Position numbers and translations under genes: made by a program
The notes under the pieces: model-generated
Databases searched by the model: none
Told to the model about the DNA's origin: nothing
The model's input: the letters and a program-made list of their open reading frames with translations, nothing else
In this document: positions 15,975-59,724 of the stretch, piece by piece
Position numbering within the stretch: the stretch's first letter is position 1
How the letters are laid out: every line of letters starts with the position of its first letter
Origin: Camelus ferus
Taxonomy: Eukaryota
DNA length: 64,000 nt
Direction: 5' to 3'
Assembly (NCBI RefSeq): GCF_009834535.1
Contig: NC_045696.1
Span: forward strand, 89,282,001 to 89,346,000

Positions 15975-17300
15975 CGAATCTGGGAATTCCTTGCGCGGGG
16001 GCGGGGCTAAGGAGGGCCTCGTGAAAAATCCCCAGATACAGAAGGATCCAATCCCAATCAGGGTGACATGAGCTCTCCGTGTCCCCTCCAGAATGGCTCT
16101 GGCCCTTCTCTTTCACAGAAGCCTCGGCGTTAATGTCACCAAACCTAGTTCCCGCAGGGCGGTAAACAACCACCAAGCGGCCGCTGTGCGCACGTGTGCC
16201 AGTGTGCACGCTAGTGTACACGCCAGCGTGCACGCGCGGGGCCGCGGGCGAGCGTGCGTTTCCGTTAGGGAGTCCTGAACGCCTCCGGCAGCCGCTGCAG
16301 CAGCGCGCCCGGCACCCCCTCCCGCCCAGTCCCCTCCCCCGGTGGCTCTTGGTCGCCCTCTTCCCTCCCCCCCGGCAGCGTCGATCGCCTCCGGGTGCGC
16401 GGGGCAGCGCTCTGCACGCGAACCCCTCCTGCAGGCGCCCAGGCGCGAGCCAAGCGCCGATCTCCGGGCGCGTTTGGCGCCCCCTCCCAGCCACCGGGCG
16501 ACGATGAGCGGAGGCGCGGGGGTCGCGGAGAGCAGGTGAGCCCAGCCGCCGGGCTGGGGGCCGGGGGGTTCGGAAAGAGAAAGGGCAGAGTGGGGGTGGG
16601 GGTGGGCCAGCTGGACCCAGCATCGCCGCCTGGGGAAAGGGCTTTGCCCCCTTCAGCACCCTCCACCGAGGGCTCTGCTTTGCCCTTTCTTGGGTGGGGC
16701 GAGGGCTCCACTCCCGCCCTGGCATCCCCGCTCTGGCCGCACAAACAAAGCGCCCTTCCGCGGCGGCGCCTGCCCCGCGCGAGCACGGAGCCTGGGAGGA
16801 GACGCGCCCGCCATCCCTGACTCCGACCCCCTACCCGGGGCGGGGACGGGGCCCAGGCGGCTGCACTTGGGTTTGGTAGGTGGCACCGGGGTCGCGCGCA
16901 GGTGCTGGCGCGGGAGGCGGCGGCGCGCAGCTTGGAGGCCCCGCGCGCCCGGCCCGGAGGCGGGGCTACGGGCGGTGCTGCTGCCCCCTGCCGCCACCGC
17001 CTCCCTGCCGCTGCTCCCGGGCAGCGCGGCGGCGGCGGCTGCAGGTGGGCCCACATCCTCCAGGAAGCAGCTGCGGGCGGCGGGTGGGTGTGGAGGAGGG
17101 CAGGTCGCCCTGCGGCTCCCGCTTTGCTTTCCGCAAATGGACTGGCGCTGTTTCCGCCTCCTCGGTTGACTCCCTGCCCCCAAGGCCCGTCTTCTGCTGT
17201 CCTCGTCTGCCCCCAGCCCTCCAGCTTCAGCCCTCTGGAGCGTCTGCGTCCTCCGCACCTGGAGGATTTGGGAGGTTTCTCTGAACACCATGGGCTCTTT
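15975..17300. promoter_or_regulatory. CpG island, probable promoter of FIIND-DD gene
   Basis: Very high GC and CpG density; GC box (ggggcggggc ~15998-16008), two CCAAT (~16048-16058), GTAAACA (16162-16168), E-box CACGTG (16191-16196). Confidence 0.85.
16504..16535 (+). CDS. FIIND-DD gene, candidate coding exon 1 (MSGGAGVAES)
   Basis: ATG in CpG island with purine at -3 (ACGATGA); donor AG|GTGAGC; ends in phase 2, matching the 26105 exon. Confidence 0.55.
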
Positions 17301-29300: not shown

Positions 29301-32300
29301 ATAGTTACCATTTGACCCAGCATTTCCTCTCCTCTTATATACCTCAAAGAAGTGGAAACATATCTCCACACAACCAGAGGGAAGGTGACTTGAAGGGGTT
29401 GCCCCAGCCAGGCTCCATCTCCCAGGGACCTGAGGCAGAGGGTGGGCCTCACCTGGGGCTGGTCCAGGCAGAATTACAGCCCTGCAGAGGTCCCAGACTG
29501 CCAGAGGGAACCGACAGGATAAAGAGGGGCCTTGGTAGGGGCTGCATGGTTCTTTAAAGCTGGGCAAAGCATTCATTCATTCACACTTTCATTCATTCAT
29601 TGAGCATCTGTGTTGGGACGGGTGGCGGAGGGTCAGGTGATGAGACAGTCCTCCCGGGCTCACAGACCAGCAGCTAAAAAAGCTGTTTGGCGGAGGGGTG
29701 AATGGGGCAGGATGGAACACAAAGGAGGCACAGCTAGCCTGACTCGGTGGGGCGGAGGGAGATTGTCAACAGGAGTGACTTTTGGGCTGGCTCTTACTGG
29801 ATACCTAGGAGCTCTGGAGGTGGAGTCTGGGGGAAGGATTTCCAGGCAATGGGATGGCATCTGTAAAGGCATGGAGGAAGGAGTGGGATGATTCTAGTCC
29901 AGGGGTTCTCAACCCTGGCTGTGCTTTTCCGTCATCTGGGGACCTTTAAGAATATACTGCTGTTCAGGTCCCACCCGAGATCAGTTAAATCAAAACTTCC
30001 AAGGAAGGGCCGAGTCCCAGGCAGGGGTGTGTTTAGGAAGCTCCCTAGGTGATATTGGTGTGCAGCCAAGGTTGAGAACACTGCTCTCTGCTTCCAGCCC
30101 TGCAGGACCAAGTCCATGTCTTATTGCCTTTATTTCCCAGCACCTGTTCCTACAGAAGCATGGCCTCGCCCTCCACCCAGGCACTTCTCATGCAGGAACC
30201 TGCCTCCTGCTCCCCCTCTCCCTCCACATCCAGACAGTCACCAGCTCCTGGGCCTGGAATTGCTGAAGTCACAAGAAGCATGTTTGCAAATGTAACAACA
30301 CGGTTAAGCGTGCAAATTCGGGCCAGCCTGCCCAAGTGGAAATCTTAGCCCCAGACTTCCTGGGCAGCGGGTAGTAGGGTGCTGGTGGTCTTGCGTAAGT
30401 AAATTCACTGACCTCAGCTTACCTCACTGGGAAGTCATGAGGGCTAGTGTGTAAATGTATGTAAAGCTCTTACATAAATATATGTGAAGTGTGTATATAT
30501 ATATGTAAAATGAGTAAATAAATGTAAATGAGTGAATACGTGTAAATGAGTAAGTATGTGTACAGCGCCTGGCACAGTGAACACTCAGAGAAAACTGCTA
30601 TTAGCTGCTATATTACTGTTCTCATTTTTATTCTCAAATCCTTTCATTCCTCCATGGAAGTATTGCACGTCCTTGGTTTTGGTCGTCAGCAGTTGTGTGT
30701 AGGGAGGGATGCTGTTAGGATAATACCAATAGCTTTCTGTGTGTTTACTCAGGGAACCCCGGGCCTGGGTGTGGTGAAGCTGGGGGAGCAGTGGCGGCGC
30801 GGGGTGGAGGGTGAACTTGGCCGGGTGGACTACCTGGGCGCGTCTCTGGTCGGCCAGGGCAGGTCCAGGGCGGCCCTGGAGGTGGAAGTCGACGTGCCCC
30901 CCCAGGGCTCTCAAGGTGTTCGTAGTTGGGGGTGCGGGGATGGAGAGGAGCGGAAGGCCCGTGGAGGGCACTTGGAGAGGCAGGAGGAGAACCAGGACAG
31001 ACACCAGGGGAGGGCACCGGCAGGAGGGGATGGTCCGTGTCTTTCCCTGGGGGAGTCATGGGACTCGGGGTTAGCGGGTCTTTGGGGCCATGAAAGAAAG
31101 GATTCCAAATTCTGTGGGAACAGAAGCCTGATTGCAGTGGGTGAAGGTGCTGATGTCGGGGTGTGGGAGGGCAGGGAGCATTCCTGGGGACCACTCTTTC
31201 CAGAAGCAGTTGAACAATATAGACTGTCCTCTGCTTTGGGAAATGGCAGTTACACTGCAGAATTCTGCCCTGTTGTATGATTGAATTTGTGCATGGAATC
31301 TCCTAGATGCACAAGTGCAGGGCAAGATGGGAGCAGCAGGGGGCAGGTCAGGCCTGGTGGGACTTGGGTGACACCCAAATAAAATGATTATTGCAGCCAG
31401 AGTGTGATTTGAGCTCTTATTTAAACAATTAAATTATGTTTTGTTCAGTTCCAAAGAAGGATAAGCCCTCTATGTAAACCAGACTAGATTTGGACTCAGT
31501 GAGAACGGATTATAAGAAGAAGTTAGTTGAGTTTGGATCTGTTTTATTATGTGTATAATTTAAGAAAATAGTTCCCACTTCCTTTTCATTGTGTGCTTCT
31601 CCCGGCATATGCTCTTTTTTAGGCGAGGACAGCTGTTCTGAGAGCAGCTCTGAAAGCGAATCAGGTGAGTTATCTATGTGTGTGTTTCTTTAATTACAGA
31701 ATCCTAGGTAAACATAGAAACCTTTATTTTTATTTTAAAGTAATGGCCACATCGGTTATATTGCTTGAGGACACGTTAATTGCCAGAGTCTTTTGTGTGG
31801 AATACTGAAAAAGTACGTACATGGTAAATAATTTCTGGTTGGCAAGCAAAGTGGCAAAACAGGATGAGCTGAAGAAGAAAGACAGGAAATGGTTGCTATT
31901 GGTGAGGAACAAACATTTTACCTGCTCTCCCATTAGCCTGTGTTTTCTCTTAGTTGTCACATGAATCTGATTTAGACCTTTTTTTTTTTTTTGTAGATAA
32001 TGAGGAGCCAAAACCAAAACAAACAAGTGAGTGTATCCTTCCTTCCTCTGTCATCTTTTGTGTTGTTGAAAGGAAGAAAAAAGGGTAGGCTTTGAGATTT
32101 TTAAGTTGCAAGTTGCTTGTTTCATGATCTTTTTTTTCATGGAAAATTGAGTTAAGCTTTAGGAAACAAATAAGCATTTTGAAAATTTGAGTTCAGTACA
32201 CTCGGGATAAAAGGGGCGTGTTCTTGATCTGCACTGATGCCAAGGTTCTGCATGAGCTGTTCTGCTCTGAGGATTCCCAGAGGAGAAGAGATTGAGAGAT

Positions 32301-35300
32301 GGCCGAAATCTGCAATGTCGCCACGGCCACAGCCTCGGCTTCCTTCCGTAGTGGTCGCCGCTCACAGTTCATCACAGGGTGAACAGTTTGCTGCTGAAAG
32401 TGTTTTACCATTTGTGGTTTAAAGTTTCTGCCTTGCTGTCCTGGCTGTTTGTGAACCACTTGAGTATGAAGCCACCACAGAGACATGGATCCTAAATATA
32501 AATTTGATTCGGGTCTAAAGTTTTGTGAAAAACTTAAAAAAAAGTGAGTGACTAAGCTTATATTTTAACTGAGTTTATTTTACTGTAGGATTCCACCCCT
32601 GCCCCCCACCCAGTTCTTAGAATATGATCTGCCCACGAACACAAATACTATAGCAAGGCAGTCAGAGGGTGCCTTTGTAATATTTTAAAATAAATGAAGT
32701 CTCTTCACTGAGAAGTCTTGTATTTAATTTAATTCTCTGCAGTTTCCCAGTGGGGAACCCGGGAAGGTAATTGTAAGCTCCTTGCAATCATGTTATGTAT
32801 TGATAAGAACCTATAATTATTTCTGTATCACACTCGTGGAGTAGATGTCACATTCTGATAGCCATAAGGGAAAAATGTACACCAGCCCTCCTCCCAGTCC
32901 ACTTTGTACATTAAGGATTAGTTCATCTTGCAAAATGTGATCAGGAGTCCAGCCTCTGTGGATTAGATTGGGATAGAAATTAAATCAGAAAGCTGTGTAT
33001 TGGGATCCAGTCTTTGCTGTTCCTGGTTAACAACTGAGTAAATGGCCATAGGGACACAGAGTCCAGAGGCAGGGCCCTCAGGGTCCTGGAAGCCAGGCCT
33101 GGGCTTCCAGGTCCTCGCCAGGGTAGCACCCAGGTGGAAGGCATTCTGAGTCAGTGAGGCTCAGGACAGGCTCAGCATTGGTGGGAGGCTGGGGTCAGTG
33201 TGGTGAGACAGGGCATGTGCAGGGCAGGGACTTGCTGGGCCTGGCCCTCAGCCGAATTAGGCACCTGGATGTTCTCTGGCAGCGACAGTGAGTAGGCTGA
33301 GCATGCTTGTCCTTGGAGCCCAGGGCATCCAAGGGGCCCTGCCTTCCCCCAGGTTTATTCTCTTTGTTAAAAGACATTTTACCCTCTGTGTTGTGGGTGA
33401 GATCAAAGAGGCACTCCCCATTCACTTCCATCCGCAGGTCTGATAGAAGGACCAGGCAGACCACCCTGGCTCGCTTGCTTCTCTGGGCTGGCTGGTGATG
33501 CAGGCCCACCCGTTGTGCTCATGATTGGATATGCCTTCTACTCATAGGCATGGGCTTGGGGTCACCTCTCTTGTATGGACTAAAGAGAAGCTGTGGTTTA
33601 TGTGTTGGAGAGAACTGTATCGGTCCTTCTGCTGGGAAGACCCGTAGACTCTATCTGCTGGGCGGTTAGGATTCTCTAACCTCTTTCCCTTTCTCTGTTC
33701 CCAAGGCAAAGGGCAAGACATAGAAACATGGGATGTGGATGCAGTGCAATGTGGATGACAGCCATTAAATAATCTAGAATTTTACAGTGCTTTTTAGGAC
33801 AGCGGCTGAGGAAATATGATTGAAGGATTTTGTGGTGTAGGACTTGGGTCAGTATTTCAGAACCTTCGGCTTTATAGTATTCTGAGTCCAGAATTCTGAA
33901 TACTTTTAGTCTCTACTTGCCATTTCATCTTAATGCTGTTTTTTTAAAAGCTGGTTCTCTCTTGCAACCCCTGGTCCCTGTATAATGCCCTAACAGCAGG
34001 CAGCTTGTGTAGCCGGGGCTGGAGCACCATCCTGGGGGAGAGCCTGCACCTTCTGGGTGGTATTGGTGGCCTAGGACCTTCTACATGTGTTGAAGATGCC
34101 TGTCTCAACAACAGGCTGACCCTCCCAAAGGCTGTTCAGATCTTTAACATATAAAACCAAACACTTAACACATTAGGTTTTACCCCATGTGAAGGGTTAT
34201 TGTTTACTTTAGAATTCCTGAATTTTTTAATGAGTCCCACCATCGCCCTAGCAAAATAATATTTCATAACAGTTCGCTAGTACTCACTGAGTGCTTGCTG
34301 AGTGCCAGGCACAATCCTTGCCTGTAATTTAATTTTCTATCTTTCTAGGGGTGGTATTATGCTAATCTCCATTTAATAGATGAGGAAAGTAATGGACAGA
34401 GAGATTTAGTACATAACTAGAGAGCCCAAGCTCATGAGCTAGTGGCCAAGGCAGGTAATAGGAAAATTCATTGCTGTTCTCGTTCATAATTCATTTTGTA
34501 GAATTCTAGTCATTCAGAAAATGAACACTGACTAGGCCCTGGGGTTATAGTCCTCATGAAGCTTACATTCTAATGGGGAGAGAAACAGGAATCAGAAAGA
34601 CTCAGCCAAATAGTGTGTGAGGTTGTGGGGAGTGCCCTGAAGGAAATGAAAGGGGAAGAGAATGTGTCAGGCAGGCCCTGCTGTCAGGAAATCCTCTCTG
34701 ATAAGGTGATCTTTGAGCAGAGACTGCAAGGATGTGAGGGAGTGAGCAACGTGAATATTTGTTGTGAGTATTTGTTTGAGGAGACAGTGCAAAGGCCCTG
34801 AGGCAGGAGCATGTGGAGAATGGCTCAGAGTGACTGGAGGGTTGTAAGTGCAGGGAGATGCAGTAATGAGGAGCCAGCGGAAGGAGTCTACATGTTAAGT
34901 CAGAGATAGTTCTGGTTTAAATGTGCCCAAAACCAGATGTTAATTACTCTCTTAAGTCCAAGCTAATCTCTAACTTGAAAGTCACCTGGGGGGCTGATGC
35001 TGATCAATCACTGTCTTGGGGATAATGACTCCAGCTTAGGTGTCCCAACTCCGGGCCGCCACGAAGGGCTCCTCCTTGGGGGCTGCAGCTGTCCAGATGG
35101 AACGCTGGCCTAGGTGGGGAGTAACCAGTGAAGAGGTTGTTTATGACCACCTGAGCCCTTCTTGTCTTCATAGATGGGGAGCTAGGAGAGTCTTCCACCG
35201 AGGAGGCGTCCACTCAGGGTAAGAGCGAGGCAGTGCCCTTGCCATCTTGTTTTCTCGGATCCATCCTGTTCTCCCTGTGCCTGTGGTGTGGGAGGAGGAT

Positions 35301-38300
35301 GTGAGGATCAGGCTGAAGGATGGTGAGACAGCAGTTGCTTCTACATAAAAAGATCAGCTAAAGACCTATGTGCCAAAATGAGCTGCGTGGAAACTTAAGC
35401 TTGTTTTCATGCCCCACCCAGCCCTACAACAGGACTCACAAATGTGATAACGGGTCATGTGTCTCTAAGTCCAGTGATGGAGATGTTTAAATAAAGTTCC
35501 TGTTGGCTGTGAAGCTGGAGGTGGGGGCTTAGGTGATTTACCCTGTGATTAACTTATGCCAATTCACGAATGATTGTATCTTTCACAGTTGAAGAATGGG
35601 AGGATAAAGGATTGCCCACAAATCATTTTAATTCAGGTATGAACTTAATATATTCCTTTAAATATTGTTGCTAAGGGGCTTGTACCTTTGAATTTTGTAA
35701 TCTGGTCATATCATATATATTTATTAAACATTTTTTGTCTGAAAATGCCAATCACATTCCTATAAGTAAAACTTTTTCTCTGTCATTTAGAATTTAATAA
35801 AATCCAATCTCACTGTGAACACTGTAAAGCTGAAAATGTAAGTCTCTTTTAATTATAAAGTATGATTCTTTAATTTGCTTGATTTAAGGAAACAACATTT
35901 ACTTATATATCATATATGTGCTTTTTCTCCAGAAACACAATGAACCAGTGACCCCCAGGCTCCTTTCCCGGGGACAGTTTTTGTAAGTCATTGTGGATAC
36001 AGAAGACGACATATTGTTCATCCTTTTAATTTTCTATATAAAAATAACCCTGAGTAGGGGAAGCACAAAACAGCATAACTTAACTTCACACATTTTATGT
36101 AATTCCTTGGATTGTTTTCTTTGATACTGATGTTGCTTCAAAATGTTACTGAGTTCTCTTTGTGCTTTTGAATGAAATTAAAAACAAATAATTGCAAGAA
36201 GTCCTCTCCTACCCAAGCAGCAGGACTGAACAGGTGCTCTTATCTGTCCAATGCAGACTGAAGGTGGACACGGAGGGCATTTACCAGTGCACGGAAACTG
36301 GTCTGATATTTGAAGTTAACAGAAAAGTTGACATCAAGTATTGTGTCTTGTCCTGGAGCAAATATGCGGACCTGGTTGTTAAGCCCTGGGTTGTCGGTGG
36401 ACCCTTGTTTGATGTTAAATGTGACCCTACCTGTCTTACCTCCATTCAGTTTCCACATTCCCTCTGCTTGGGTCGTAAGTACTAATTTGCTAACAGTTTA
36501 ATCTGTGCGTGTGTGTGAGAGAGAGAGAGAGAGAATGTGTGCAACCCATACAATGCCTGGAACACTGACGCACCTTCATGTCTTCACAGACTGCGACACC
36601 AACATGATGTTCAAAGTCTTGCATGTTAAAAGTACTGGGGCCTCGTTAGAATACACCGTGGACCACTCTGCAACCCATGTCAAATGGCGCGTGAGCTCTC
36701 TTTCTCCTGTGGGACCTGTTATTCAAAGCGAAGAAACGGTGTTCCACCACGGGGCCGTGATTCTGTACAAAGCCATTGACCATAATCCATCCTTGTCTTT
36801 TCGAGTGTACATAGCAACCAATAATGAGTCCTTCATCAAGGTAAAGCCAATGAAATGAATACTAAATGTTGAATACTTTGTTTTCAGACATGACACGACA
36901 TCTGGGTGGGTCCTGTCCCTGTTGCTTTGTGTCCCCCCTCAGCGGCGGGTCTGATTTGGTGCTCCCACAGAGGTCGTAAAGTCCGTGGCTGGTGTGTGTG
37001 TGCTGAGTCCTCAGATCCAGGGAGTATGATTGTTTGTACATGTAAACAGTGTTGTGAAGATAACAAATGGGGAAAGAGCTCTTCAGAGCTGGGGCTGGCC
37101 CAGGCAAGCAGGCCTGGCCTTGGAGGAGATTGCCTGGTGGACAGCCTAGGCCATCTGTTTTCTACAGCCTTTTTGCTGGGGACCAGGGACCAGGGGCCAG
37201 AGTGGTGACATCAGCAGGGAGCTCGTTACAGTGCCAAGTCTCAGCCCCACCCAGCCCTGCAGACTCAGAGGTGACTGGTGTGCACGTGGAGCTGGAGAAG
37301 CACCGGCCCTGGGATGCACTGGGCATCGAGGGTAGGGTGACCGAAGGTTTCTTCTGGGCCTAAAGCTCCACCAGTAAGATGGGCCTCTCAGGGTAACTCA
37401 CTGCAGAACAATTTTTTGGATAAAAAATTGACCCATTGTTCATGGGTTCAACATTCTGGTTTTTGAAGCAACAAATATTCATGAAGCACCTCATGTGTTT
37501 AAGGCAGCCTGGCCTGAGGGAAAGGGTTTAGATATTCACCATGGAACCAGTTTTCCAGAACACCGAATAAGGCTGTGACGTTCAGCCCATTTTCCAAACA
37601 GTATTGTTTAGAACAAAGGGAACCGAATCTCCTTTCATAGCCCGACTTAGAGGTCGGCTGAAATATAGCAGATAAAGCAGTGACACAAGATTATACTTTC
37701 AGATTCGAAATCAGGGTTTGACAGAAGTTAAATGAGCATTAGAGCTGTAATAAAGTGTGCTAATTTAAGAGTTGTAATTTGAGCTACAGAATCTCTATCA
37801 AACGATCTACTCCCAGTGGTCTTTGGTTGTAGTATTTTCACACTTTAAAAATGTTATACTGATTATAATTAGCCATATGTATTAAAGTATAAAAACTTTA
37901 TTAAGTAATGGGTTTTTAGTTTCTTCCTAAGAAGGTAAAACATGCTTCCTGTAATCTCATTAAGGTAATACTTTCAGTTGGGAAAGTAATCTTCAAAATG
38001 GTATGAGAATAATTTAAAGTATAATTAGCATAGATTTGGAATAAGTACTGTTGTTTAATGAACTTTATATTTTTTTAAGTAAATTCAGTTATTAAAAGGG
38101 GATTACCCCTCTTCCTAGGAAGCTGGGGTGGGGGCTGATTACATCAGCACATGTAGAGACGTTTGCCGCCAGAACAATGGGGAGCGTGGCACTGGTAAGG
38201 CAGGATGTCCTTCCTGGCTGATGTTTTATTTTTACACTTTTCTTCATGGGTTGATTTTTTTTCCCCCTAAGTAGAGAAAGATTTCCTTGAATTCTGCCTC

Positions 38301-41300
38301 AGGAAACCTAAATTTCATGTTCAGCTGTGACAGCTGCTTTACCAAGGGAGCCTGGGCCAACGCTTACTTTAACCTCTTGGGGGCATTTGAACAATACATG
38401 TAAAGTCAGCGCCCCCCGTAGGCCCACGTCAAAGGGGTAGTTGTGAAAATAAGGATGGAAACATATAAAGTGTGGGACAGAGACACACTGAGTAAGCTGG
38501 AACCCTGTAGAGTAAAGTAGCTGCCTTCTGTCCACAGGTGCACTGCTAGTGCTAACTGAACTCACATCCTTCAGGAGCAAATGGTCGGTGCCACACAGGG
38601 TAGAAGGGTTGCTTTTGGCCGTAGTGCTTTTGCAGAAAGATGTTTGGCGATCTGGGAGCCTGAAGTACAGATCAAAGGCGCCTCAAGCCTCTGTGGCCTT
38701 TTTTCCCCCTTGTGAGCACTGTGAAAGCTACTTCAGGGCTGTCACTTTGTAGTCAGAAGTGAAGATAATGCAGGCTGGCACGTGCCCTGCCTATAATCTG
38801 ACATTTCTTACTGTTGTTGCTGATGGATTTCAAAACCAAAACCTGTTTCCACCTTTAGGATATTTCCAAGTCTATAAAGCACTCCTCTAAGAAATTCATG
38901 AAAGTCGACAAGCCTCCTGTTTGCCTGAAGTTGTTGCAGAATGGGAAGAAGTACAGACTGATTAGTGAGCCGGAAGCCGAAATCACCCCAGAGGTAGAGC
39001 TCTTAAAACCACCTCAGAGGGGCAGCGGGGATGTGGATCTCTTAGCTGTGGTGTTTTGCAGATACTACAAATAATGTATTTTGTTCTCATTTTTTTATTT
39101 CCCACCTTCTAAGAAAGCAATTGTGTTTTTCTCATCTTGTAGCTTATTTCAAAGATCCTGTTGAATTTTAGGATGCTGCAGTCATTGGGAAAATAGACTC
39201 CCCAGTCTCTTTCCCTTTCAAAAGGTTTTCCATTTTCTTGAATTTTTAATTAAACTCTTCAAACAGTGTTAGCTTCAAAGGAATACAAACCTTAAGTTTA
39301 ATTTGAAGTCACACAGAGCATTAAAGGTTAATGGAAGGGAGTTGCTAACAAGGGATATTGGGCTTTTCTTACTGGAAGGCATTTGAAAAATAGAGGACAG
39401 ATTGTCATCAAATTTGTCTGTAAACACCATGACATTTGTAAAGTGACTTTGATTTCTCAGAAATGACTTGGTTATTTTGAAAACTTATTTTCACAGTGTG
39501 CTCTGAGCATATATGCCACAGCTTGTCGAGCCTGGACCTCTGTGTGCAAATTCCTTTGTATGCCTCCTTTTGTTTGTCTGTTTATTTTATAGTTTATGAA
39601 AAGCTGAAAACATGTTTTGATTCCATTAAGTTAAGATGGGAGGCAAGAGAGCTAATTGCAGTGGGGTCCATGTTGCATCATTTTATTGTATCATCAAGGC
39701 ACCCAGTGCCCTGTAGAAGCAATCACAAACCCTGATCAAGCTGTCGAGTTGATCAGACAGTCTTCTATTACCTTCCTTTCTGGTTTTAAAGGGTCTCTTC
39801 GCACCCTTTGAATTATTTAAGCCTTACAGCTACATGGCTGAGGAAACTGATGCAGGCGGGCAGTCTGCCCAGGCCACATACCCGGGCAGCGGCAAGTTCG
39901 GCCCAGAGCCCCAGCTGCCTTTGGCTTCTAAAGCCGCCGTCTTCCCACTGGGATCTGAGAGGTTAATTCTTGGCCCTCCCAAGCTGATCAAGCCCTGGCC
40001 GATGGTACAGCAAGACAATCACAAGAAGCAAACTGCAGCCTTGTCTGGGAAGTGGAATTAAATTAGAAGAGTTTGCTTAGAGCAGTGATTCTTGGCCTTT
40101 GCTGCAATGGAATCCCCTGGGGAGCTTTAAAAAAAAATTCTGTGGCCTGGGTCCCACCTCCAGGGACGCTGACTTAATTGGTCTGGGAAAGGCCTGGGCA
40201 TTGGGTTTGTTAAAGCTCCCAGGTGCCTGTAATGTGTTGCCAAGTTAAAGAACCACTAGGAGAGGGAATAATACCTATTGAATAGGTGAATCTGTCCAGG
40301 AAGAGACCAAGGTGGTCCCAGGAGTTCTTTTTCACAAAAGATGTTGATAGCTGGGGGACTTTAAATAATCTGTGTTTTACGACTCACTGTGTGCTCTCTC
40401 TCTCAACCAAATCTCTGGCCTATAAGATGGGAATAATCTCCCAGGTTTTCTGTAAAGATCATACAAAGTGATGGTTTGTGGGTACTCTGAAAATTTTTAA
40501 CACTCTGTGTAACTATAAGGTGTTCTTTTCAGTTTTATACCATTAATGATTTGTTTAACTGACATTGATCAGGAGTGCCTATTACAAGTCAGCCTGGGAT
40601 GAGAGCTAAGAGTTAAAAAAGAAGTAAGTCACAGGCTTTTTTTTTTCCCCGTGGGGGTACTGGGGATTAAACCCAGGACCTGGTGCGTGCTAAGCATATG
40701 CTCTACCACTGAGCTATCCCGCCGCCCCTAGTAAGTCACAGTCTTTTCCCTCAAAGATGCCAGTGTAGTGAGGGAAGTACTCCATTCATGCAAAGAAATA
40801 ATTTTAACGTAATGTGGTATTACTATAGAGATGGGCAGGAGGTACAGTGGGCTTTTCCAGGGAGGCTTTTCACATGGGGGAAGTTTGCCTGGGTTTGCAG
40901 ATGCCTGAGAGGTGACAGGAATGTGCGGCTGGGCTGGAGGCCCCCGGGAGGCTTTGGGGAATGGGAACGTGGAGGACTTTGGGAGGACTGGGGCCAGGGG
41001 AAGGAGTTGTCTCAGCATTATGGACCCTAGTGTGTGACCCCTGGAAGGTTGTGAGGATAATGCTAGTGACTTGGAGCAGAAAGAGAGGGGGGCAGGTTAA
41101 GACCACCGGTTTGGGGGGTGATGCCCAGTGCAGTTCAGTGTTATTTATTAAGAATGTACTTCTCAGCCAGGCTTGCTAGCCAGTCTGGAGAGGAGCAGAG
41201 GAGGTGGGAGGAGGAGGCAGTCCATGTAGAGGTTAAGAGCTCACACTCTGGAGTCAAAAGATGTGGATTCAAATTCTGGTTTCATCACTTCCTGCATGTG

Positions 41301-44300
41301 GACTTGGGCAAGTTCATTTGCTTCTCTGGGATTCTTTATCCATGAAATAGTCATAAAAGGATTTGTCCAATGAGGAACTATGGGTAAAACCCTCCACATA
41401 GTTCTGTGAATGTTGAGTCAGTCGCAGATTGGAGCATGCTCCAAGGAGAGGATGGTGAGGAGTTTAAAAGCACCTGGGAAAGGGTGGCTGATGGGTGAGC
41501 CCACGTTCCATCTGAAGAATCAGGAAAGGGCTGACAGATGGGGCCAAGGGACTAGAAAGGAAGCTTCAGTAAGGTAGAAATGCAGTTTGGAGTAAGAGTG
41601 GGAAGGTCTAGAAGGAAGAGAGTAAGAGGACAAGTGATTGAGTGGTGGGATTTCCAAGGTCACGATTTCAGTGGGGTGGTCCAGCAAGCACTAACCCTTT
41701 TAATGGTCATTATTCTTTATCTGACATTTTATGTTGTTCATTAGTGCAACTTTTAAATGTAAGAATGTCACTTTTTTTTTTTTAAAGGAAATTGAATTTG
41801 TGGATGGTTCACTTTTAAAATTGAAAAGTTATATTGAAGTGTATTTGGAGCAACCGGTGGAGTTTAAGTTACTTTTGGTGGAGATGGATTCCGAGGAAAT
41901 TGTATGGAAAGCAAAACTGAGAGAGTGTGAGTGTTTCATGTTTTGCATCTTGAGTTAAAACTCTGGTTTGGTGGGGTTGGGGCGGGGCGGGGCGGGGCGG
42001 GGTGGGGAGGTGGGCAGGCAGACGGGGCAGTCGTCCATCCCATCACTGGGACGTGACAAACTTCGATTAAAAGAAACGAAGGCCCCAGCCACTGGGACAA
42101 AAGTGCCGGCTCGGGTTCTCAGGCCCTCACCGTCCAAGTCCCCAGAGAGCGGGTGCCTAGAGCCCATATTTGCTCTCACGTCTTTCTCCTCCAGATGCGA
42201 CACCCAGTCAGATCGGTTTGGATTTCTGTCCTAGTCCAAGAAGGAAGCTTTTCTATGGGTGTGATTCTTATTGTCAGTATTAGACCCTTAAATTAGCCTT
42301 TCATCCAAACTACAGTTACTTAGCCGGGAAGAGTCCTAGGCGGGACTCTGCATTGGGGGTTGTATTATTTTTCTCTTGGTATTCATTAATTTGTCAAACA
42401 AGTGAACCTGAAAGATGTTACTTTTTAATCACAGCAAATGCCACAGTAATGAAGGTATTTAACATGTCGCCACCCGAACAACTGATGTTCTTCTAGACTG
42501 AGTCTCTCTCGGGGTAGTTTTAGAGACCACTTTATAAGGCCTCTTTGTAACCTTGTGTAATCACAGTCTGCATGCTAAGGTGGCCCTGGTCTGCATTATC
42601 TGGGGGCTCTATCCTACTGGTTAGCAGCACCTGCTCATCACTTTTCAGGCGCCTTCACTCCAGAGACCTATCAAAGGCCTCCTGAGACGTCGGCACGTCA
42701 GAACGGGGGCTGAATTTCACACACGGCAGGTGCTGTCCAGTCAGAATGAAGTATCCAGAAAGAATTCCCAAAGTACAGGGTTTTCCAAACTACAGAAGGC
42801 TAATATATATGTATGAGATTCTTTTACGTGGAGAAAAATAAACTTAAAATGTTTATTTTTACGGCTTCCTTGTCCACCTGGCACACAATGCCAGTGTTCT
42901 GATCGCAGTAGTTCTAGATTTGAAGAAATGCAGAAGAAATGACATTTCACCTGGCATGTGGGTAGGGCACGTATCATGACGGTGGTTTGCAGATGACTGA
43001 GGTTTGGGAAACACTTGTCTCACAAGACATGTTGGAAGGAGTCCTTGTGATTTATCTCAAGAGTCCAAGCCCAGTGCATTTGCGTACGTACCAAGTTAAA
43101 ACTCCACACTCATATTTGAACTTTAGGGAGATTGCCAAGACCCTAGGGCTTCCGTGTTTTCACAAATCGATTGCTTTAATTCAAATTTCATACCACTTTT
43201 TCCAGTTGATGCTTATGGTACTTTCACAGGTGACTGGATTCAGCAAGATCGGAATCGGAACATTTCGAAAAGCAGCACAAGTGGTGAGTGCTCATAACTG
43301 GACATTAAACTTCTGTTCTTTCCATCCACTAGAATTTTAATTTTGCTGTGCAAATACGGTAACATCAAGGATCTGTTAAGTGTTCCATAACTCTTAAATA
43401 GTCTAAACACCTCTGAATCCATTTTCAATTGGTTTCTATTTGTATGATGATTTTTTTAAATCCATTTTGAAGATGGGTGGATACTAACAACCATAAGGGA
43501 AAGCCAATTTGTTGCTGTTGTTTTTTAAAGGTAACAGGCGTCGAAAAATGAGTAGCAGCTTACCTGATGAAGTGGTCTATGATAAAAGAATGAAGCAGAT
43601 TGACACTTCAGGTTTGTAAAAATGTCATCAGTGGCTCTAAATCATTTTCCCTGGTCTCCCGCCTTGACATTCATCCAGCACATGTGCTTCTCGGGTCAGT
43701 CTTCCTGGAACACATCCCAGATGTGCCTCCCAGATACCTTCTCCCTGTGTCCCAGCTTCTCAGGCCTGGGTAAGGGTCCCCTTTGGTCTGCCCCAGCCTA
43801 CTTTTCCAGCTTGACTGCCCGCTCCTCCCCTTCACTCAGTGGGATGAGAACGGGAGGAGGGGAAGCTCCTGCAGCCCCTAGGGGCAGGACCACGGCCTGG
43901 CCATCTGTGCATTTCCCATAGCACTGAGCGTGCAGCCTTTTATGCAGAAGATAATGAATGTGCATGTGTGCAGTCACCGGTTTCACAGTTATTAGCTACA
44001 TTTAGGGGAGGGAGCCGCCAGCTCAATTATTGGAGACTAGAGTCAACCTAATTTTTTCCAATTAAATGGCAGAGACCAAAGCTCGATAGTTGTGAAAATA
44101 CAATAGAGATTTAGACACGTAACAATGGTGCTCTGAGGAGCCAGAAGATGGAGTATGTGCCTCAGAATTCAAGTCCAGAACTCACAAATTTGAGTTTTAA
44201 AAACCCAAACTCAAATTATATGAGACAAGGTCTCAAGGCTTTGGGAGCCTCATGTAACTCCCCAGATTAAATCTTTTCAACAAAATACCCTTTATTTTAC

Positions 44301-47300
44301 TATTGTAAGAAAGTGTGAATCTCTAAAAGCAGATAAACTCTCTCTATAGACTGAAATAAGATCTTTCACTTCCTAGAGCAGGCGGTGGTGAGGATGACAC
44401 GTGTCTGATTTTACTGCGTGTCACTAGAGACTTTTTTTTTAATTTTTATTAAGTGAACATCAGAATAAGTGAGGCTCTGGAATTATTTTGCCTTAACTTA
44501 ACTTACTTAACAGTTATTTTAACTTAACCAATTTACTTAACCAAATTGGGATATAATATTTTTCCAGTTTTATTGAGATATAATTGACAAATAAAATTGT
44601 ATAGATTTAAAGTATAAAGGTGATGTTTTGATGTATGTATACATCGTGAAATATTTACCAATCAAGTTAATTAGCACATCTACCACCTCACATAGTCACC
44701 TTTTTTTTTTGGTGGTAGTGAGAATGCATAAAACCTACTCTCTGAGCAAGTTTCAAGTATGCAATACAGTATTATTAACTAGAGTCACTGTGCTATAGAT
44801 TAGATCTTCAGGACTTACTCATTTATAACTGAATGGGACACAATTTTGTATTAAATTGATACATAGGAAAAGTTTTCTTTTCTTGAAATTATTTGGCTGT
44901 TTTGAAATTAGCTCCAATAACAAGTAGCTAGAAATAGAATTCAAATGATCAGATGCTACCTAGAAAGATTAAGGATTTCTAACCACTTTAGAGTTGACAA
45001 TATGATGTCAAATAAATTAATAAAGATTTACTTTTGTTTAGGCATTTCTGCAACATGTTTTGAGCTGTTGAGTCTCTATCTTGGTGTATCAGGCTCAGCA
45101 TATCACCATGTTGCTTTTTAAAATATGGTCAGCTCTCTTGGGAAGGGTGTAGCTCAGTGGTGGGGAGGGTGTAGCTCAATGGTAGAGTGCGTGCCTAGCA
45201 TACACAAGGTCCTGGGTTCAATCCTCAGTACGTCTATTAAAATAAATAAATAAATAGTAAAATAAAAACCTAATTACCTCCCCCTTACAAAAAAAAATTT
45301 CCCCTCAAAAAAATAAAATAATATTCAATATCTTGTAATAATCTTTAATGAAAAAGAATATGCAGATGAATATATGTATGTATATGCATGACTGGGACAT
45401 TATGCTGTACACCAGAAGTCAACACATTGTAACTGACCATACTTCAATTAAAAATATTAAAAAGTAAAAAATTTGAAAAATATGGTCAACTCTCAACCTT
45501 AACAGAATCACTTTGAGATCTTGTTAAGTTTAGGTTAAGAGTCTGATGTGGTAGTTTCGGGGACAGCCCAAGGACTGGCCTTGTTAATAGACTCCCTGGG
45601 GAGTTTTCCTGGCAGCAGGCCGAGAGGTGCACTCGTCTAGGCACCGGGAAACCTCTAGAGGGCAGGGGCACCCCTTTAGAACCCATCCTCCAGTCTAGAA
45701 GGCTGGAGAGGAAACTGTGAAGTGGGTTAGGGTCTAATATGTATGTTTGGTTTACATGAATAGACTGTTGGCTGTAGATGAGCGAAAGTGTTGTGGTCAT
45801 GGGAGAGGGGCAGAAGGGACTCTTCCCTCTCTCTGCCTTCCACTGTCACCTCCAAGTGTTTGTAAGACCTTGAGGATCCTTAAAGGAGACTCAGCAGCCA
45901 GTGAGCTTTGCTTCACCATAGCACAAACCAGCTAAAACACGTGAACGTAGAAAATCTGTCTTACCGACAGGGCTAATATTTTTATGGAGCCAATAGTTTG
46001 CACTGGCAAACGTATATCCTTCCAAGATTATGACCCTGTTTCTTAGCAACAGATAGTACAGATACCCTCCTGTGACTTTTCTGTGGATTGTGCTTTTCCC
46101 CCCAATGCCAGGAGATGGCAGAACGGAGACTACAGGTCATCTCCCTTCCTGCCTCTTTAGTGACCACTTAAAGGTAGCATTTTGTATGTGGCTTTAACAC
46201 TTAAAGACACAGAGGTGGGCAAGGGTAACAGCTGTATATTTTTCTTTTTGAGCCACATAAATTATTTTCGGTGTCTTGATTTTTTTTTTTAACTCCAACC
46301 TAATCTGTGCTGCTTTGTAAAACAATTTCATTCCCTGAATTATTGAATTATCATTGTGAGCAAGCACTGTGCCCCAGTTTCATGTTATAGGAAATTGTTC
46401 CCTTCTGTCTTTAAAAATAGTTTGGAAAGCAAGAATTTTTTTGTCACTTAAATATATCTTAAAAGCAGTTATTAAATTTTCAAATTGTGGTTTCTTTTTT
46501 TATATAAAGAGAATGTATTTTCATTGTGAATTCTTCATCTGCTTTTAGATGGGGCAAAGACTAAAGCCTTGTTAACAGACACTCAGCTGATAAGCCTTGC
46601 TGAGAAGCTGGGGCAGGAGTGGGTAAAAATCGCCATTGCCAACCTGAAGTTGAAAATTAGCGATATTGATGCTATCATGGAGAAGAAAGAAGACGTTACA
46701 ATGAATAAGTTTCGGATGCTGAAGAAGTGGCAAGAAAAGGAGCAGAGTAACGCCACAGCTCAGAATTTATGTAACTGCTTGAAAAATGTCGATTCGGTTG
46801 AGGTCCAAGATGTGCTGAGAGGTAAGCAGGAAATTATCTTTAATTAGCCACTTTCTTGGAATCTAGCTATGTCTTTGCAAATAGCATATTTCTACCATAG
46901 AATGTGTTGCTTGCTTATTTATAAGCTTGGGTCCACATAATTCTGCAAATGCAGCAGTAAGCACGTGGGTGACCATAATCTTACTAAAGGTGGTTTGTGC
47001 ATGGAGTCAGGGAGCGTTTAAATCTCATCTCAAGTGCTGGCTAGGTTTGTGACTAAGCAAATTCTTTTTTTTTAATTGAAGAGAAGTTAATGTACAAAAT
47101 TATATAAGTTACAGGTGCACAATATAGTGATTCACAATTTTTACAGGCTATGCTCCATTTATAGTTATAAAGTCTTGGCTATTTTCCCTGTGTTGTACAA
47201 TATATCCATGACTAAGCAAATTCTTTACCTAACTTTAAGCCTCTATGTGCCTATCTGTGAAATGGATGTAAAACCCTCACTGCCCTGTTGTGAGACTGAA

Positions 47301-48551
47301 AAGAGGTAATGCAGGTAAAGTTCCAGGCAGGTAGTGAGACGCAGCAAGGGGTAGATAATGTCCCTAATGGAGACCTAGCCGGTCGCATTGGGCCGTCTGT
47401 GGTGCTGAAGCAATGCTCGGGGAGGCCACAGGGTGGCACTAGTGAACCTTCAGTAGCCAAGAAGGAAAGGGGAAGAGCAGAGCCCCAGAGAGGGCTAGAC
47501 GGAGTTGTTTCTGGTCTCGATCCAGAAAACCGCACGGTTCCTTCCTTTGTTTTTAAGCACTTCTTTTTTTGTGTGGCTTGACTTAGCACATTGTTATACC
47601 CGTGGTCAAACCAATTCACAACTTTGATTATTGTATATTGTTATCACGATTAACAAATGTGGTGTTACTTCTCAGAAGTCTCGGCAAGTCAGAGAGATTT
47701 TTATTTGGAATTCTATTCAGACTTTTTATTCCTTAAAGCACGCAAAAGTGTGTCTGTGCCCTAAAAGGTTATACAAAAAGTACAAGCGTGCGCTGACCTC
47801 TCAGGAGGCTGTCCAGCGTGGTGGGCGAGCTTTCTGAACTCCTACACCAGAGTTTGGGTGCAGAAGCTGCAAGCAAATAGAATAGCCAGTTTCAATATCA
47901 AATTTTTTTTATTCTCTTTCTTAGATGTGTTGAAATTATGTAAATCACTGAGGCCCACATTTGGAAATCTACTGATTTACACACAGGCACATCTGCCTTT
48001 TGACAGCAATGGCTGCTGTGCTGTGATAAAGAATTATCACAGCCTTGTCCGTCAGAGGAAGGCTTGGAGCTCTGACTCCCTCCCAAACCCTGTAGAATGT
48101 ATTGTTATTGTTTTGTTTTGTTTTTATCTGCTCCTGACCTCACCAGACACTTGACATGAAACTGTAAAAGGATTTGCGACTTTGTTTTTAACAGTAAAAA
48201 GGATCATAAAAGTTTAGTATCCCCTAATTAAATAGGAAAAAAAATCTTCTTAGTTAAAAACAAACAAACAAACACCAAAATTTACCAGTGTTTGATGCCC
48301 TCATGTAGCCGAAATATCTGGTTAATTGGCTGAATTTTGTACTTTTATCGGGATGTTTCAGTGTCTTGTAACCACAGCCTTTGAAAACCGCATAGGTATC
48401 TTCAGCTCAGGAAAACCCGGCCACTTCTAGGAGTTCCTTTTTGAAATGGATGAGTAGTTTTCTTTAAAAGCATGAACCTCACCCCCCACCCCCAACAAAG
48501 AATCCCTGAATTTGTTTCTCTGTTTTGTTAGGTTTCTTGCAGGAAACGTGA
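16504..48551 (+). CDS. Unnamed 19-coding-exon gene, predicted 535 aa: acidic disordered N-terminus, CxxC, FIIND (ZU5-UPA, NLRP1/CARD8 type), linker, death domain
   Basis: join(16504..16535,26105..26136,27074..27115,28466..28510,31623..31664,31997..32026,32743..32766,35174..35218,35589..35636,35791..35837,35933..35982,36257..36474,36590..36840,38859..38993,41788..41926,43230..43283,43531..43611,46549..46821,48532..48551). All introns are GT-AG, phases match at every junction, total 1608 nt with one stop (TGA 48549-48551). FIIND and DD motifs recognised by eye. The core (35791-48551) is firm; the first exon and some micro-exons are less certain. Confidence 0.85.
22626..23120. mobile_element. 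Probable ERV1-type solo LTR in intron 1 of FIIND-DD gene
   Basis: TG...CA ends; ttaaattgat..gagacagattaat..aggagaaaa...ggttgttatgcagatt...tcagacacccttacaaatggagatttcc. Confidence 0.55.
24620..25540. mobile_element. L2 LINE remnant
   Basis: gatgacttggaggttctagtctggtgacctgg..., aggagcaggtttg..., G/A-rich plus strand typical of L2. Confidence 0.55.
25540..25910 (+). promoter_or_regulatory. Small intragenic CpG-rich segment, candidate alternative first exon
   Basis: CpG-rich; ATG 25712 is open to donor TG|GTAAGT at 25905/25906 in the phase required by exon 26105. Confidence 0.4.
26105..26136 (+). CDS. FIIND-DD gene exon 2 (DDHSASSEEK)
   Basis: Acceptor ttttctgttcttgttctag, donor G|GTATGG, phase 2->1. 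Confidence 0.7.
27074..27115 (+). CDS. FIIND-DD gene micro-exon 3 (DQPDSKTSAESLTF)
   Basis: Acceptor tgtttcag, donor A|GTGAGT, 42 nt, phase 1-1. Confidence 0.7.
28466..28510 (+). CDS. FIIND-DD gene micro-exon 4 (NCPSPNLDTSEDSKS)
   Basis: Pyrimidine tract + tttag, donor CAG|GTAAGG, 45 nt, phase 1-1. Confidence 0.75.
29045..29372 (+). mobile_element. L1 ORF2 C-terminal fragment
   Basis: RFSREDVQMAKKHMKDA...aggaaatgcaaaccaaaaccaca...aagtgctgacaaggatgtggagaa. Confidence 0.85.
29898..30085. mobile_element. MER5-like DNA transposon
   Basis: Inverted ends caggggttctcaaccctggctg ... cagccaaggttgagaacactg. Confidence 0.8.
30745..31350 (-). mobile_element. L2 LINE remnant
   Basis: Minus strand acccactgcaatcaggcttctgttcccac... 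and tcctggttctcctcctgcctc resemble the L2 ORF2 consensus. Confidence 0.55.
31623..31664 (+). CDS. FIIND-DD gene micro-exon 5 (GEDSCSESSSESES)
   Basis: Acceptor ctcttttttag, donor CAG|GTGAGT, 42 nt, phase 1-1. Confidence 0.8.
31997..32026 (+). CDS. FIIND-DD gene micro-exon 6 (DNEEPKPKQT)
   Basis: Poly-T tract + gtag, donor A|GTGAGT, 30 nt, phase 1-1. Confidence 0.75.
32743..32766 (+). CDS. FIIND-DD gene micro-exon 7 (ISQWGTRE)
   Basis: Acceptor ttctctgcag, donor AAG|GTAATT, 24 nt, phase 1-1. Confidence 0.6.
35174..35218 (+). CDS. FIIND-DD gene micro-exon 8 (DGELGESSTEEASTQ)
   Basis: Acceptor cttcttgtcttcatag, donor G|GTAAGA, 45 nt, phase 1-1. Confidence 0.8.
35589..35636 (+). CDS. FIIND-DD gene micro-exon 9 (VEEWEDKGLPTNHFNS)
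   Basis: Acceptor tctttcacag, donor CAG|GTATGA, 48 nt, phase 1-1. Confidence 0.8.
35791..35837 (+). CDS. FIIND-DD gene exon 10 (EFNKIQSHCEHCKAEN), contains CxxC
   Basis: Acceptor tttttctctgtcatttag, donor |GTAAGT, phase 1->0. Confidence 0.85.
35933..35982 (+). CDS. FIIND-DD gene exon 11 (KHNEPVTPRLLSRGQF), start of ZU5
   Basis: Acceptor ctttttctccag, donor |GTAAGT, phase 0->2. Confidence 0.85.
36257..36474 (+). CDS. FIIND-DD gene exon 12, ZU5 subdomain
   Basis: GIYQCTETGLIFEV...W...PWVVGGPLFDVKCDPTCLTSIQFPHSLCL matches the FIIND pattern (NLRP1, recalled: GSYRWPNTGLCFV...WMVAGPLLDIKAEP...VHLPH); cag acceptor, GTAAGT donor; lies in ORF 36192..36485. Confidence 0.93.
36590..36840 (+). CDS. 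FIIND-DD gene exon 13, ZU5/UPA junction with predicted autoproteolysis site SSL|SPVG
   Basis: FKVLHVKSTGASLEYTVDHSATHVKWRVSSLSPVGP...AVILYK...SFRVYIATNNESFIK aligns without gaps to recalled NLRP1 FQMAHFKEEGMLLE...HIVLENPSFSPLGV; cag acceptor, AAG|GTAAAG donor. Confidence 0.93.
38859..38993 (+). CDS. FIIND-DD gene exon 14, UPA subdomain
   Basis: DISKSIKHSSKKFMKVDKPPVCLKLLQNGKKYRLISEPEAEITPE carries the FxxIxKPP..L..G.xY.......EIxP pattern of FIIND UPA; 135 nt, phase 0-0. Confidence 0.9.
40080..40260. mobile_element. MER5-like DNA transposon
   Basis: agcagtgattcttggcc...gaatcccctggggagctttaaaa...gccaagttaaagaaccact. Confidence 0.75.
40636..40728 (-). mobile_element. Short vic-1-like SINE with target-site duplication
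   Basis: gggtactggggattaaacccaggacc...ctaccactgagctatccc flanked by agtaagtcacag on both sides. Confidence 0.85.
41788..41926 (+). CDS. FIIND-DD gene exon 15, end of UPA
   Basis: EIEFVDGSLLKLKSYIEVYLEQPVEFKLLLVEMDSEEIVWKAKLRE ends in the VWxAxL motif of FIIND; poly-T acceptor, GTGAGT donor. Confidence 0.92.
43230..43283 (+). CDS. FIIND-DD gene exon 16 (CDWIQQDRNRNISKSSTS)
   Basis: Acceptor ctttcacag, donor G|GTGAGT, 54 nt, phase 1-1. Confidence 0.8.
43531..43611 (+). CDS. FIIND-DD gene exon 17, basic linker (GNRRRKMSSSLPDEVVYDKRMKQIDTS)
   Basis: Acceptor ttgttttttaaag, donor CAG|GTTTGT, 81 nt, phase 1-1. Confidence 0.75.
44560..44835 (-). mobile_element. L1MA-type 3' end
   Basis: agttttattgagatataattgacaaataaaattgta...acctcacatagtcacc...attaactagagtcac. 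Confidence 0.85.
45140..45476 (+). mobile_element. vic-1-like SINE plus L1 3' tail inside one target-site duplication
   Basis: SINE 45140-~45300, L1-like tail ~45320-45476; TSD aaaatatggtca(g/a)ctctc at 45120-45137 and 45477-45494. Confidence 0.8.
46549..46821 (+). CDS. FIIND-DD gene exon 18, death domain
   Basis: LTDTQLISLAEKLGQEWVKIAIANLKLKISDIDAI...FRMLKKWQEKEQSNATAQNLCNCLK shows death-domain hallmarks (LAxxLGxEW, DIxxI, MLxxW, ATxxxL); cttttag acceptor, G|GTAAGC donor. Confidence 0.92.
47066..47208 (-). mobile_element. Short L1 3'-end insertion with TSD
   Basis: tttaattgaag...ggctattttccctgtgttgtacaatatatcc flanked by tgactaagcaaattcttt on both sides. Confidence 0.8.
48532..48551 (+). 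CDS. FIIND-DD gene last coding exon (GFLQET*)
   Basis: Acceptor tttgtttctctgttttgttag; phase 1 completes the last DD helix, then TGA. Confidence 0.75.
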
Positions 48552-49971: not shown

Positions 49972-49977
49972 AATAAA
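49972..49977 (+). terminator. Candidate proximal polyA signal of FIIND-DD gene
   Basis: AATAAA followed about 25 nt later by a T-rich tract. Confidence 0.45.
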
Positions 49978-56524: not shown

Positions 56525-56680
56525 CTAGGAAGAATTCAGATAGCTCATCATTCTGTCGATGGTCACTGCACGAATTCTGAAGGCATGAAGAAGTATGCAG
56601 AGCTTGATTTTGGTCTTATAAAAATCCGGCTCTTCCAGGGAGGGTTTCTGTGGCACAGTCTCACTGCTGACATTCAGGGC
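56525..56680 (-). CDS. IL12A: IL12A exon 7, coding part
   Basis: ALNVSSETVPQKPSLEEPDFYKTKIKLCILLHAFRIRAVTIDRMMSYLNSS then TAG. Confidence 0.98.
   Translation of the reverse strand, partial: ALNVSSETVPQKPSLEEPDFYKTKIKLCILLHAFRIRAVTIDRMMSYLNSS

Positions 56681-59668: not shown

Positions 59669-59724
<56 letters not shown>

Follow-up and report, generated by a model that had tools for sequence, protein, structure and literature searches.

What kind of protein ends in the domain encoded by this stretch of Camelus ferus DNA, and with which partners might that domain act? A preliminary description of the window, as we call the whole 64,000-nucleotide stretch, had read the domain as a death domain (DD) resembling those of RAIDD and PIDD1, on an exon consistent with shuffling onto a gene containing a FIIND, with RAIDD/caspase-2, FADD/caspase-8, or RIPK1 as possible partners. 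We found the gene to be real and ancient, one that varies the known FIIND sensors by using a DD as its output, and no published study of it was found in the open-access literature (subscription journals largely fall outside that scope).

Exon 16 encodes a death domain

The peptides quoted in the preliminary description are present in the plus-strand frame at positions 46551 to 46820, and the end of the span that it gave, position 48551, coincides with the end of the TGA in the 20-nt exon 17. In a Pfam profile search, the exon 16 domain matched Death (PF00531) at 42.8 bits (E value of 6e-11; curated cutoff of 22.6 bits), and no CARD, PYRIN, or DED model matched it up to an E value of 10; the classification as a CARD, PYD, or DED that would have spoken against the description was thus tried, and Death came out instead. 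The AlphaFold model of the domain has six helices (pLDDT of 89.5), and in a structure search of 48,161 PDB representatives, the top 12 rows were all DDs (Z scores of 12.6 to 8.4), followed among non-DD folds by a CARD (8.3), a DED (6.9), and a PYD (6.3). The ESM Atlas returned generic invertebrate Death clusters alone (0.88 to 0.91). These results confirmed that exon 16 encodes a true DD and not a CARD, PYD, or DED.

Gene model and protein layout

Mapping of a database protein onto the window placed the gene on the plus strand, in 17 exons from position 16504 to position 48551 (Table 1). Every intron is bounded by GT-AG, and the predicted model forms a single open frame of 513 amino acids, identical from exon 2 on (502 of 502 residues) to Camelus ferus LOC106730349, which, like si:dkeyp-97b10.3 in fish, is an existing database entry of the family. 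Such entries go by the names "uncharacterized," "CARD8-like," or "NLRP1a/b-like," and the databases already show FIIND, UPA-FIIND, and Death matches on them. From the N terminus on, the protein consists of an acidic, Ser-rich region, a CxxC motif, the ZU5 and UPA halves of the FIIND, a basic linker, and the DD, with both the N-terminal region (pLDDT below 50 over residues 1 to 159 of the database model) and the linker predicted to be disordered. Among 42 aligned orthologs, the first Cys of the CxxC motif is kept in 40 and the second in 35, and the motif may form a zinc or redox site; a bipartite basic motif, found by pattern only, occurs in the linker of 39. In shark, coelacanth, and teleost adaptors, the DD likewise follows clusters of basic residues.

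Table 1. Features of the FIIND-DD gene and its surroundings (positions in the window)
Feature	Position	Strand	Remark
Exon 1 with ATG	16504..16535	+	Inside CpG island; same start in hippo, whale, carnivore, and bat models
Alternative first coding exon	25712..25905	+	Used only by camelid database models; second CpG island
Exons 2 to 8, acidic Ser-rich N terminus, predicted disordered	26105..35837	+	First 98 aa: 26 D/E, 22 S
Exon 8	35791-35837	+	CxxC motif closes the N-terminal part, just before ZU5
ZU5 half of FIIND	35933..36702	+	Exons 9, 10, and 5' part of 11
His208	36622-36624	+	ZU5 half of FIIND
Glu217	36649-36651	+	ZU5 half of FIIND
Predicted autoproteolysis site, Leu234/Ser235-Pro236	36700..36708	+	NLRP1 equivalent, Phe/Ser-Pro
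UPA half of FIIND	36703..41926	+	3' part of exon 11, exon 12 (38859-38993), exon 13 (41788-41926)
Linker exons 14 (43230-43283) and 15 (43531-43611)	43230..43611	+	Predicted disordered
Bipartite basic motif, possible nuclear localization signal	43536-43595	+	In linker; pattern match
Exon 16, death domain	46549..46821	+	Phase 1-1, 273 nt, AG/GT ends
Exon 17, final coding bases and TGA	48532..48551	+	20 nt; 48551 is last base of TGA
Candidate polyadenylation signal	49972..49977	+	First AATAAA past the stop; sequence motif
IL12A	about 56525-62812	-	Tail-to-tail with FIIND-DD gene

Skipping of exon 16 would preserve the reading frame and leave a FIIND-only isoform. A DD is lacking from 6 of 125 amniote database entries, but their C termini differ from the product that such skipping would yield. 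No RNA data set was among the matches listed in a search of sequencing runs with the DD exon; two Logan-derived entries (P0012 and P0023), whose contigs of 1 to 2 kb cover the UPA, linker, and DD, hint indirectly at expression of the gene.

Phylogenetic range and origin of the layout

A search with the DD alone yielded 60 proteins, of which all named ones are laurasiatherian or xenarthran. In a search with the FIIND, which weighed at most 1,000 candidates, the best 120 of the 374 matches extended the range to marsupials, echidna, turtles, a crocodilian, lizards, and birds, with identities as low as 68%, and FIIND-DD proteins were also found in a caecilian, sturgeons, bichir, mandarin fish, and sharks; the gene is orthologous from sharks to placentals. 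A DD is present, its core intact, in 119 of the 125 amniote FIIND entries. Between camel and chicken, identity amounts to 61% in the ZU5, 76% in the UPA, 48% in the DD, and 22% in the N terminus. Compared with nine other amniotes, the UPA is the most conserved part of the camel protein (76 to 97% identity), and the N terminus evolves fast (20 to 68%). No named entry from a primate, rodent, lagomorph, or afrotherian was found among the 60 DD matches or the best 120 of the 374 FIIND matches, and the gene was likely lost from these groups, because an intact ortholog ought to outrank those of birds among the matches listed.

As described previously, exon 16 is symmetric, with phase 1 on both sides, and the places at which intron read-through fragments in database records break are the same as its ends. 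Nevertheless, phase is a weak argument for exon shuffling in a gene most of whose introns (11 of 16) are in phase 1 and just over half of whose internal exons (8 of 15) are of the 1-1 type, and a recent shuffle as the origin of the DD was ruled out, because FIIND-DD proteins with the same layout already occur in sharks. The DD module is mobile, given its tandem repetition in cods and in one sturgeon model (flagged as unverified). Equally well, the DD could be ancestral and the CARD of NLRP1 and CARD8 the replacement, since the order ZU5-UPA-DD is also that of UNC5, ankyrins, and PIDD1 (PMC9162469, accessible part).

The FIIND and its predicted cleavage site

That the gene contains a FIIND was borne out by matches to rat NLRP1 (profile E value of 4e-25, the best FIIND match; Foldseek E value of 1e-17) and to CARD8 (9e-15 and 2e-11, respectively), and its ZU5-UPA unit is of the FIIND type, far nearer to NLRP1 and CARD8 than to PIDD1, UNC5, or ankyrins. 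The closest layout is that of CARD8 (disordered N terminus, FIIND, CARD), which likewise lacks NACHT and leucine-rich repeats (LRRs). Besides the homologous FIIND, the two share equally spaced catalytic residues: His208 and Glu217 lie at -27 and -18 from Ser235, exactly as H270 and E279 do from S297 in CARD8. According to the accessible part of PMC3210808, cleavage of CARD8 requires Ser297, with contributions from His270 and Glu279, and Phe296 is important, the F296H mutant being severely defective. Unlike CARD8, the camel gene ends in a DD rather than a CARD, has Leu/Ser-Pro in place of Phe/Ser-Leu at the cleavage site, lies beside IL12A, and carries a basic linker and a CxxC motif. With NLRP1 it shares the Ser-Pro that would form the new N terminus after cleavage, but it has none of the PYD, NACHT, LRR, and CARD of that protein.

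The His, Glu, Ser, and Pro of the site are invariant in all 42 aligned orthologs, from shark to camel, and an ungapped count over all amniote entries found the motif in 115 of 125. Three entries have Val at -27, one of which, from a fruit bat, was inspected and has an extra residue that shifts the His; the motif is absent from seven others, four of them short entries without the region. The residue at P1 is Leu in 41 of the 42 (Ser-Leu/Ser) and Phe in one, a turtle, and the Ser-Phe/Ser motif of FIIND sensors is absent from the camel gene; in UNC5b, too, the counterpart of CARD8 Phe296 is Leu (PMC3210808, accessible part). Because the catalytic residues are invariant while P1 is Leu, as in UNC5b, we consider autoproteolysis between Leu234 and Ser235 likely but not certain. 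It would yield a UPA-DD fragment of 279 amino acids (32 kDa).

Residues of CARD8 in interface I with DPP9 were taken from the accessible part of 10.1101/2021.01.13.426575, which also reports that CARD8 signaling needs UPA-UPA contact. The equivalent of L278 is hydrophobic in 42 of 42 aligned orthologs, and E279 and K272 are kept in 42 and 34, respectively; the positions of V277 and M276 are mostly occupied by Ala, Ser, or Pro.

Relationships of the death domain

The RAIDD motifs given in the preliminary description agree with the 2of5 alignment, and the resemblance that it drew to RAIDD and PIDD1 holds insofar as the domain is of a broad RAIDD/FADD/THOC1/ankyrin/RIPK1 type. A special kinship with RAIDD and PIDD1 was not supported. 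Against PDB, a profile of 23 family sequences scored THOC1 (48.8 bits), ANK3 (46.1), and ANK1 (35.8) ahead of RAIDD (29.7), RIPK1 (29.7), PIDD1 (29.2), and FADD (27.0), and a single-sequence search together with the profiles likewise put the DDs of THOC1 and the ankyrins on top, THOC1 being the best-scoring human DD by sequence. Identity of the camel DD to RAIDD and PIDD1 is 25 to 27% (PIDD1, 27%). By structure, RAIDD (Z of 12.6), THOC1 (12.3), FADD (12.3), and ANK3 (12.1) are tied, and Foldseek ranked ANK3 first. One teleost-type relative scored best against RAIDD (33.6 bits; THOC1, 25.6). The ZU5-UPA-DD order is shared with PIDD1, UNC5, and ankyrins, and PIDD1-CC, itself a self-cleaved UPA-DD, resembles the fragment predicted here; PIDD1 differs in having LRRs, two ZU5 domains, and His-Phe-Ser sites (PMC9162469, accessible part), where the camel gene has a single ZU5 and none of the rest.

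An exhaustive search of 1.84 billion proteins with the DD gave 462 matches, of which the best 150 were listed and 148 of these were scanned with Pfam. By nearest labeled DD, the 150 fall into FIIND-DD (25), a teleost type (62), a PYD-DD group (35), multi-DD proteins (27), and THOC1 (1), so that 122 group with FIIND-DD, PYD-DD, or teleost fusions. Neither a PIDD1 or RIPK1 architecture nor any identified RAIDD or FADD was among them. A PYD is carried by 19, with named sources in shark, coelacanth, caecilian, newt, lizards, snake, alligator, rhea, echidna, and dasyurids, and a further search with PYD-DD added turtles and more marsupials. The teleost-type DDs are fused to FIINDs, CARDs, a caspase (cod), and an NLR (anchovy); the one CARD tested is of the NLRP1/ASC type. 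Overall, then, PYD, CARD, caspase, and NACHT are the fusion partners of the nearest DDs. In proteins of the cod family (P0127, P0134, P0145, P0152, and P0215), the DD occurs as tandem arrays and in fusions with FIIND-CARD or a caspase.

The DD of the PYD-DD adaptor appears to be the sister of that of the FIIND-DD gene. On one and the same family profile, 26 PYD-DD domains scored 52 to 77 bits (median of 63) and THOC1 scored 49 to 53 bits, and in a tree of 38 rows and 92 columns (its rows preselected with the same profile and built without RAIDD, PIDD1, and FADD), FIIND-DD, PYD-DD, and teleost fusions were set apart from THOC1 and the multi-DD proteins with support of 98/96. One row labeled anamniote in the comparison of these DDs (P0137) is from a bat. 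An approximately unbiased (AU) test on this tree did not reject a grouping of THOC1 with the FIIND-type DDs (P value of 0.216), and in pairwise BLAST, THOC1 (52.8 bits) equals or exceeds most PYD-DD domains (40 to 57 bits). The N-terminal domain of the adaptor scores as a PYD, and its overall features resemble those of FADD (0.88, taken as a lead only); the adaptor is frequently auto-named "CRADD protein." Like the FIIND-DD gene, it ranges from sharks to marsupials and birds. Unlike the camel gene, it has no FIIND and was not found in placentals: none was among 18 matches of an insensitive search, in which two of the query rows themselves went undetected, or in the accessible part of the InterPro list of PMC11258412. 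That survey, in its accessible part, reports a PYD/DED-DD adaptor (zgc:174906 type) in birds, reptiles, a caecilian, a coelacanth, and marsupials, gives no partner for it, and draws no connection to any FIIND protein; it is this adaptor whose DD groups with that of FIIND-DD in our tree. Clusters named zgc:174906 are mostly CARD-DD (79% with a CARD), and the adaptors of sharks, coelacanth, and tetrapods have the PYD-DD form; the output domain was likely swapped in teleosts. A complex prediction with three copies each of the dunnart FIIND-DD DD and the dunnart PYD-DD DD, run without alignments or folded controls, scored 0.28, below the mark of 0.34, and speaks neither for nor against binding.

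Annotation in databases and in the literature

The FIIND-DD gene is often misfiled as CARD8 or NLRP1. In the accessible part of a 2024 survey (PMC11258412), ten FASTA entries belong to the family: those of platypus, dolphin, opossum, zebra finch, alligator, and caecilian are filed as CARD8, and those of flying fox, chicken, tinamou, and coelacanth (the last without a DD) are filed as NLRP1. The CARD8 entries of chicken and eagle in the same survey are different proteins and not FIIND-DD. Its authors remark of a flying-fox protein that it has "only FIIND and DD" and speculate on a UPA-CARD from bird CARD8; the zebra finch "CARD8" entry has no CARD. In nearly all of the open-access papers that one literature search listed, we found no occurrence of dkeyp-97b10, FIIND-DD, or PYD-DD as terms; two NLRP1 papers contain "FIIND-death." The accessible parts of PMC11508797 and PMC12436146 contain no FIIND-DD protein. 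Two candidates for prior notice were set aside: the "ded" proteins in an alignment that PMC3210808, as far as accessible, describes as all Ser-Phe-Ser and the FIIND-containing "PYCARD-like" genes of anole and turkey (10.1101/2025.06.19.660630), which we took to be another gene, as their authors place them at the PYCARD locus.

Proposed function and alternatives

FIIND signaling has so far been known from two CARD-bearing proteins, and a conserved FIIND-DD gene would carry the switch of self-cleavage and degradation into DD signaling. We tentatively favor, with rather less than even confidence, a functional-degradation sensor whose released UPA-DD would engage a bipartite DD adaptor, with caspase-8 as the probable effector. 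FIIND-DD, with its acidic N terminus, ZU5-UPA, basic linker, and DD, adds a third type to the FIIND proteins of vertebrates; it would likely cleave itself at Leu/Ser-Pro, probably constitutively, and its UPA-DD would be held back by the ZU5, perhaps together with DPP9. Degradation of the N terminus, predicted to be disordered, would free the fragment, which would cluster via its UPA and capture a two-domain DD adaptor. As a C-terminal DD replaces the CARD, no CARD-CARD contact with caspase-1 is to be expected, and the output would probably be a caspase-8-type protease rather than caspase-1 directly. Outside placentals, the PYD-DD (zgc:174906-type) adaptor would be the best candidate partner; in camel, given that the searches turned up no PYD-DD in placentals, the likeliest stand-ins would be FADD or RIPK1, which overlaps with the partners listed in the preliminary description. 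We infer each of these steps, namely, cleavage, restraint by DPP9, N-terminal degradation, UPA oligomerization, and the partner, and DD kinship in sequence does not by itself show binding. The invariant catalytic His, Glu, and Ser, the Ser-Pro N terminus, the conserved UPA, and the presence of the nearest DDs on signaling fusions are consistent with a sensor. Against it count the Leu at P1, the only partial retention of the DPP9 interface I strand, an intact camel DD in spite of the missing placental PYD-DD, and the high conservation of the FIIND, which bears no arms-race signature.

The bipartite basic motif, too, points to the nucleus rather than to a cytosolic sensor, and one might imagine that UPA-DD, by way of its basic linker, has a stress or scaffold role there, its DD being like that of THOC1, and does not form a cytosolic death platform. 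We regard this as improbable: the motif, though it lies C-terminal to the cleavage site, is a pattern match only, and although THOC1 is the best human DD by sequence, the AU test admits it as a sister, and PIDD1-C reportedly enters the nucleus (PMC9162469, accessible part), THOC1 falls below the median PYD-DD domain on the same profile, and the nearest DDs overall sit on PYD, CARD, caspase, and NACHT proteins. A FIIND that does not cleave or does not signal is also an unlikely explanation, be it as a ZU5-UPA-DD scaffold in the manner of UNC5 and ankyrins or as a decoy that damps NLRP1 or CARD8 by binding DPP9 or their UPA. It would account for the UNC5b-like Leu, for a UPA conserved far above the DD between camel and chicken, and for the few entries without a DD, and an uncleavable CARD8 FIIND does repress CARD8-CT through DPP9 (10.1101/2021.01.13.426575, accessible part); it fits poorly with the invariance of His, Glu, and Ser-Pro from shark to camel, with the intact DD core in nearly all entries, and with the zebra finch, which keeps the gene and for which the accessible part of PMC11258412 gives no other CARD8 or NLRP1 to inhibit. 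As for the lead of the preliminary description, a second PIDDosome-like nucleator whose UPA-DD recruits RAIDD and caspase-2, we hold it to be quite improbable. PIDD1-CC offers a precedent (PMC9162469, accessible part), RAIDD heads the tied structural rows and is the best match of one teleost-type member of the clade, and the sister adaptor is so often named after CRADD; yet in bits, RAIDD and PIDD1 lie behind THOC1 and the ankyrins and level with RIPK1, identity is low, and no PIDD1-like architecture was seen among the best 150 of the 462 DD matches.

ASC and caspase-1 are absent from songbirds, according to the accessible part of PMC11258412, and caspase-8 is duplicated in birds. The zebra finch carries the FIIND-DD gene as well as the PYD-DD adaptor, and because songbirds keep both without ASC or caspase-1, the output there cannot be ASC-caspase-1; caspase-8/-18 is our guess. 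We offer the sensor-adaptor pair as a testable candidate for the processing of IL-1, IL-18, and gasdermin A in songbirds without caspase-1. For the zebra finch, the published "minimal" songbird set of NLRP3 and CARD8 rests on a protein without a CARD. It is doubtful, though we suggest it, that all of this amounts to a hidden third FIIND sensor of jawed vertebrates that, through a private DD clade, would pair with an orphan PYD-DD adaptor and with it drive cell death or cytokine output via caspase-8/-18, independently of ASC and caspase-1, that would be the real identity of songbird "CARD8," that would have been rewired in livestock, carnivores, and bats after loss of the adaptor, and that would never have been studied because it is absent from humans and mice. 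The gene may bear on responses to DPP8/9 inhibitors and viral proteases in camels, pigs, cattle, dogs, bats, and poultry, and knowledge of the misannotation, which affects 10 entries of a single survey, is of use even should the mechanism prove wrong.

Genomic neighborhood

A second CpG island accompanies the camelid-only alternative first exon in the window at positions 25501 to 26000. Within an intron, a GC-rich stretch at positions 30750 to 30900 has frames open on both strands with coding-like third positions, for which no Pfam match was found; in the scan of 150 open reading frames (148 of 168 flanking and 2 intronic), IL12A was the sole match. In a sterlet model, the FIIND-DD gene is fused to a TPR stretch of the IFT80/172 type, and IFT80 lies near IL12A in human, which together suggest an old synteny. 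The human interval 3' of IL12A, which holds long noncoding RNAs and autoimmune association signals, may harbor a remnant of the FIIND-DD gene.
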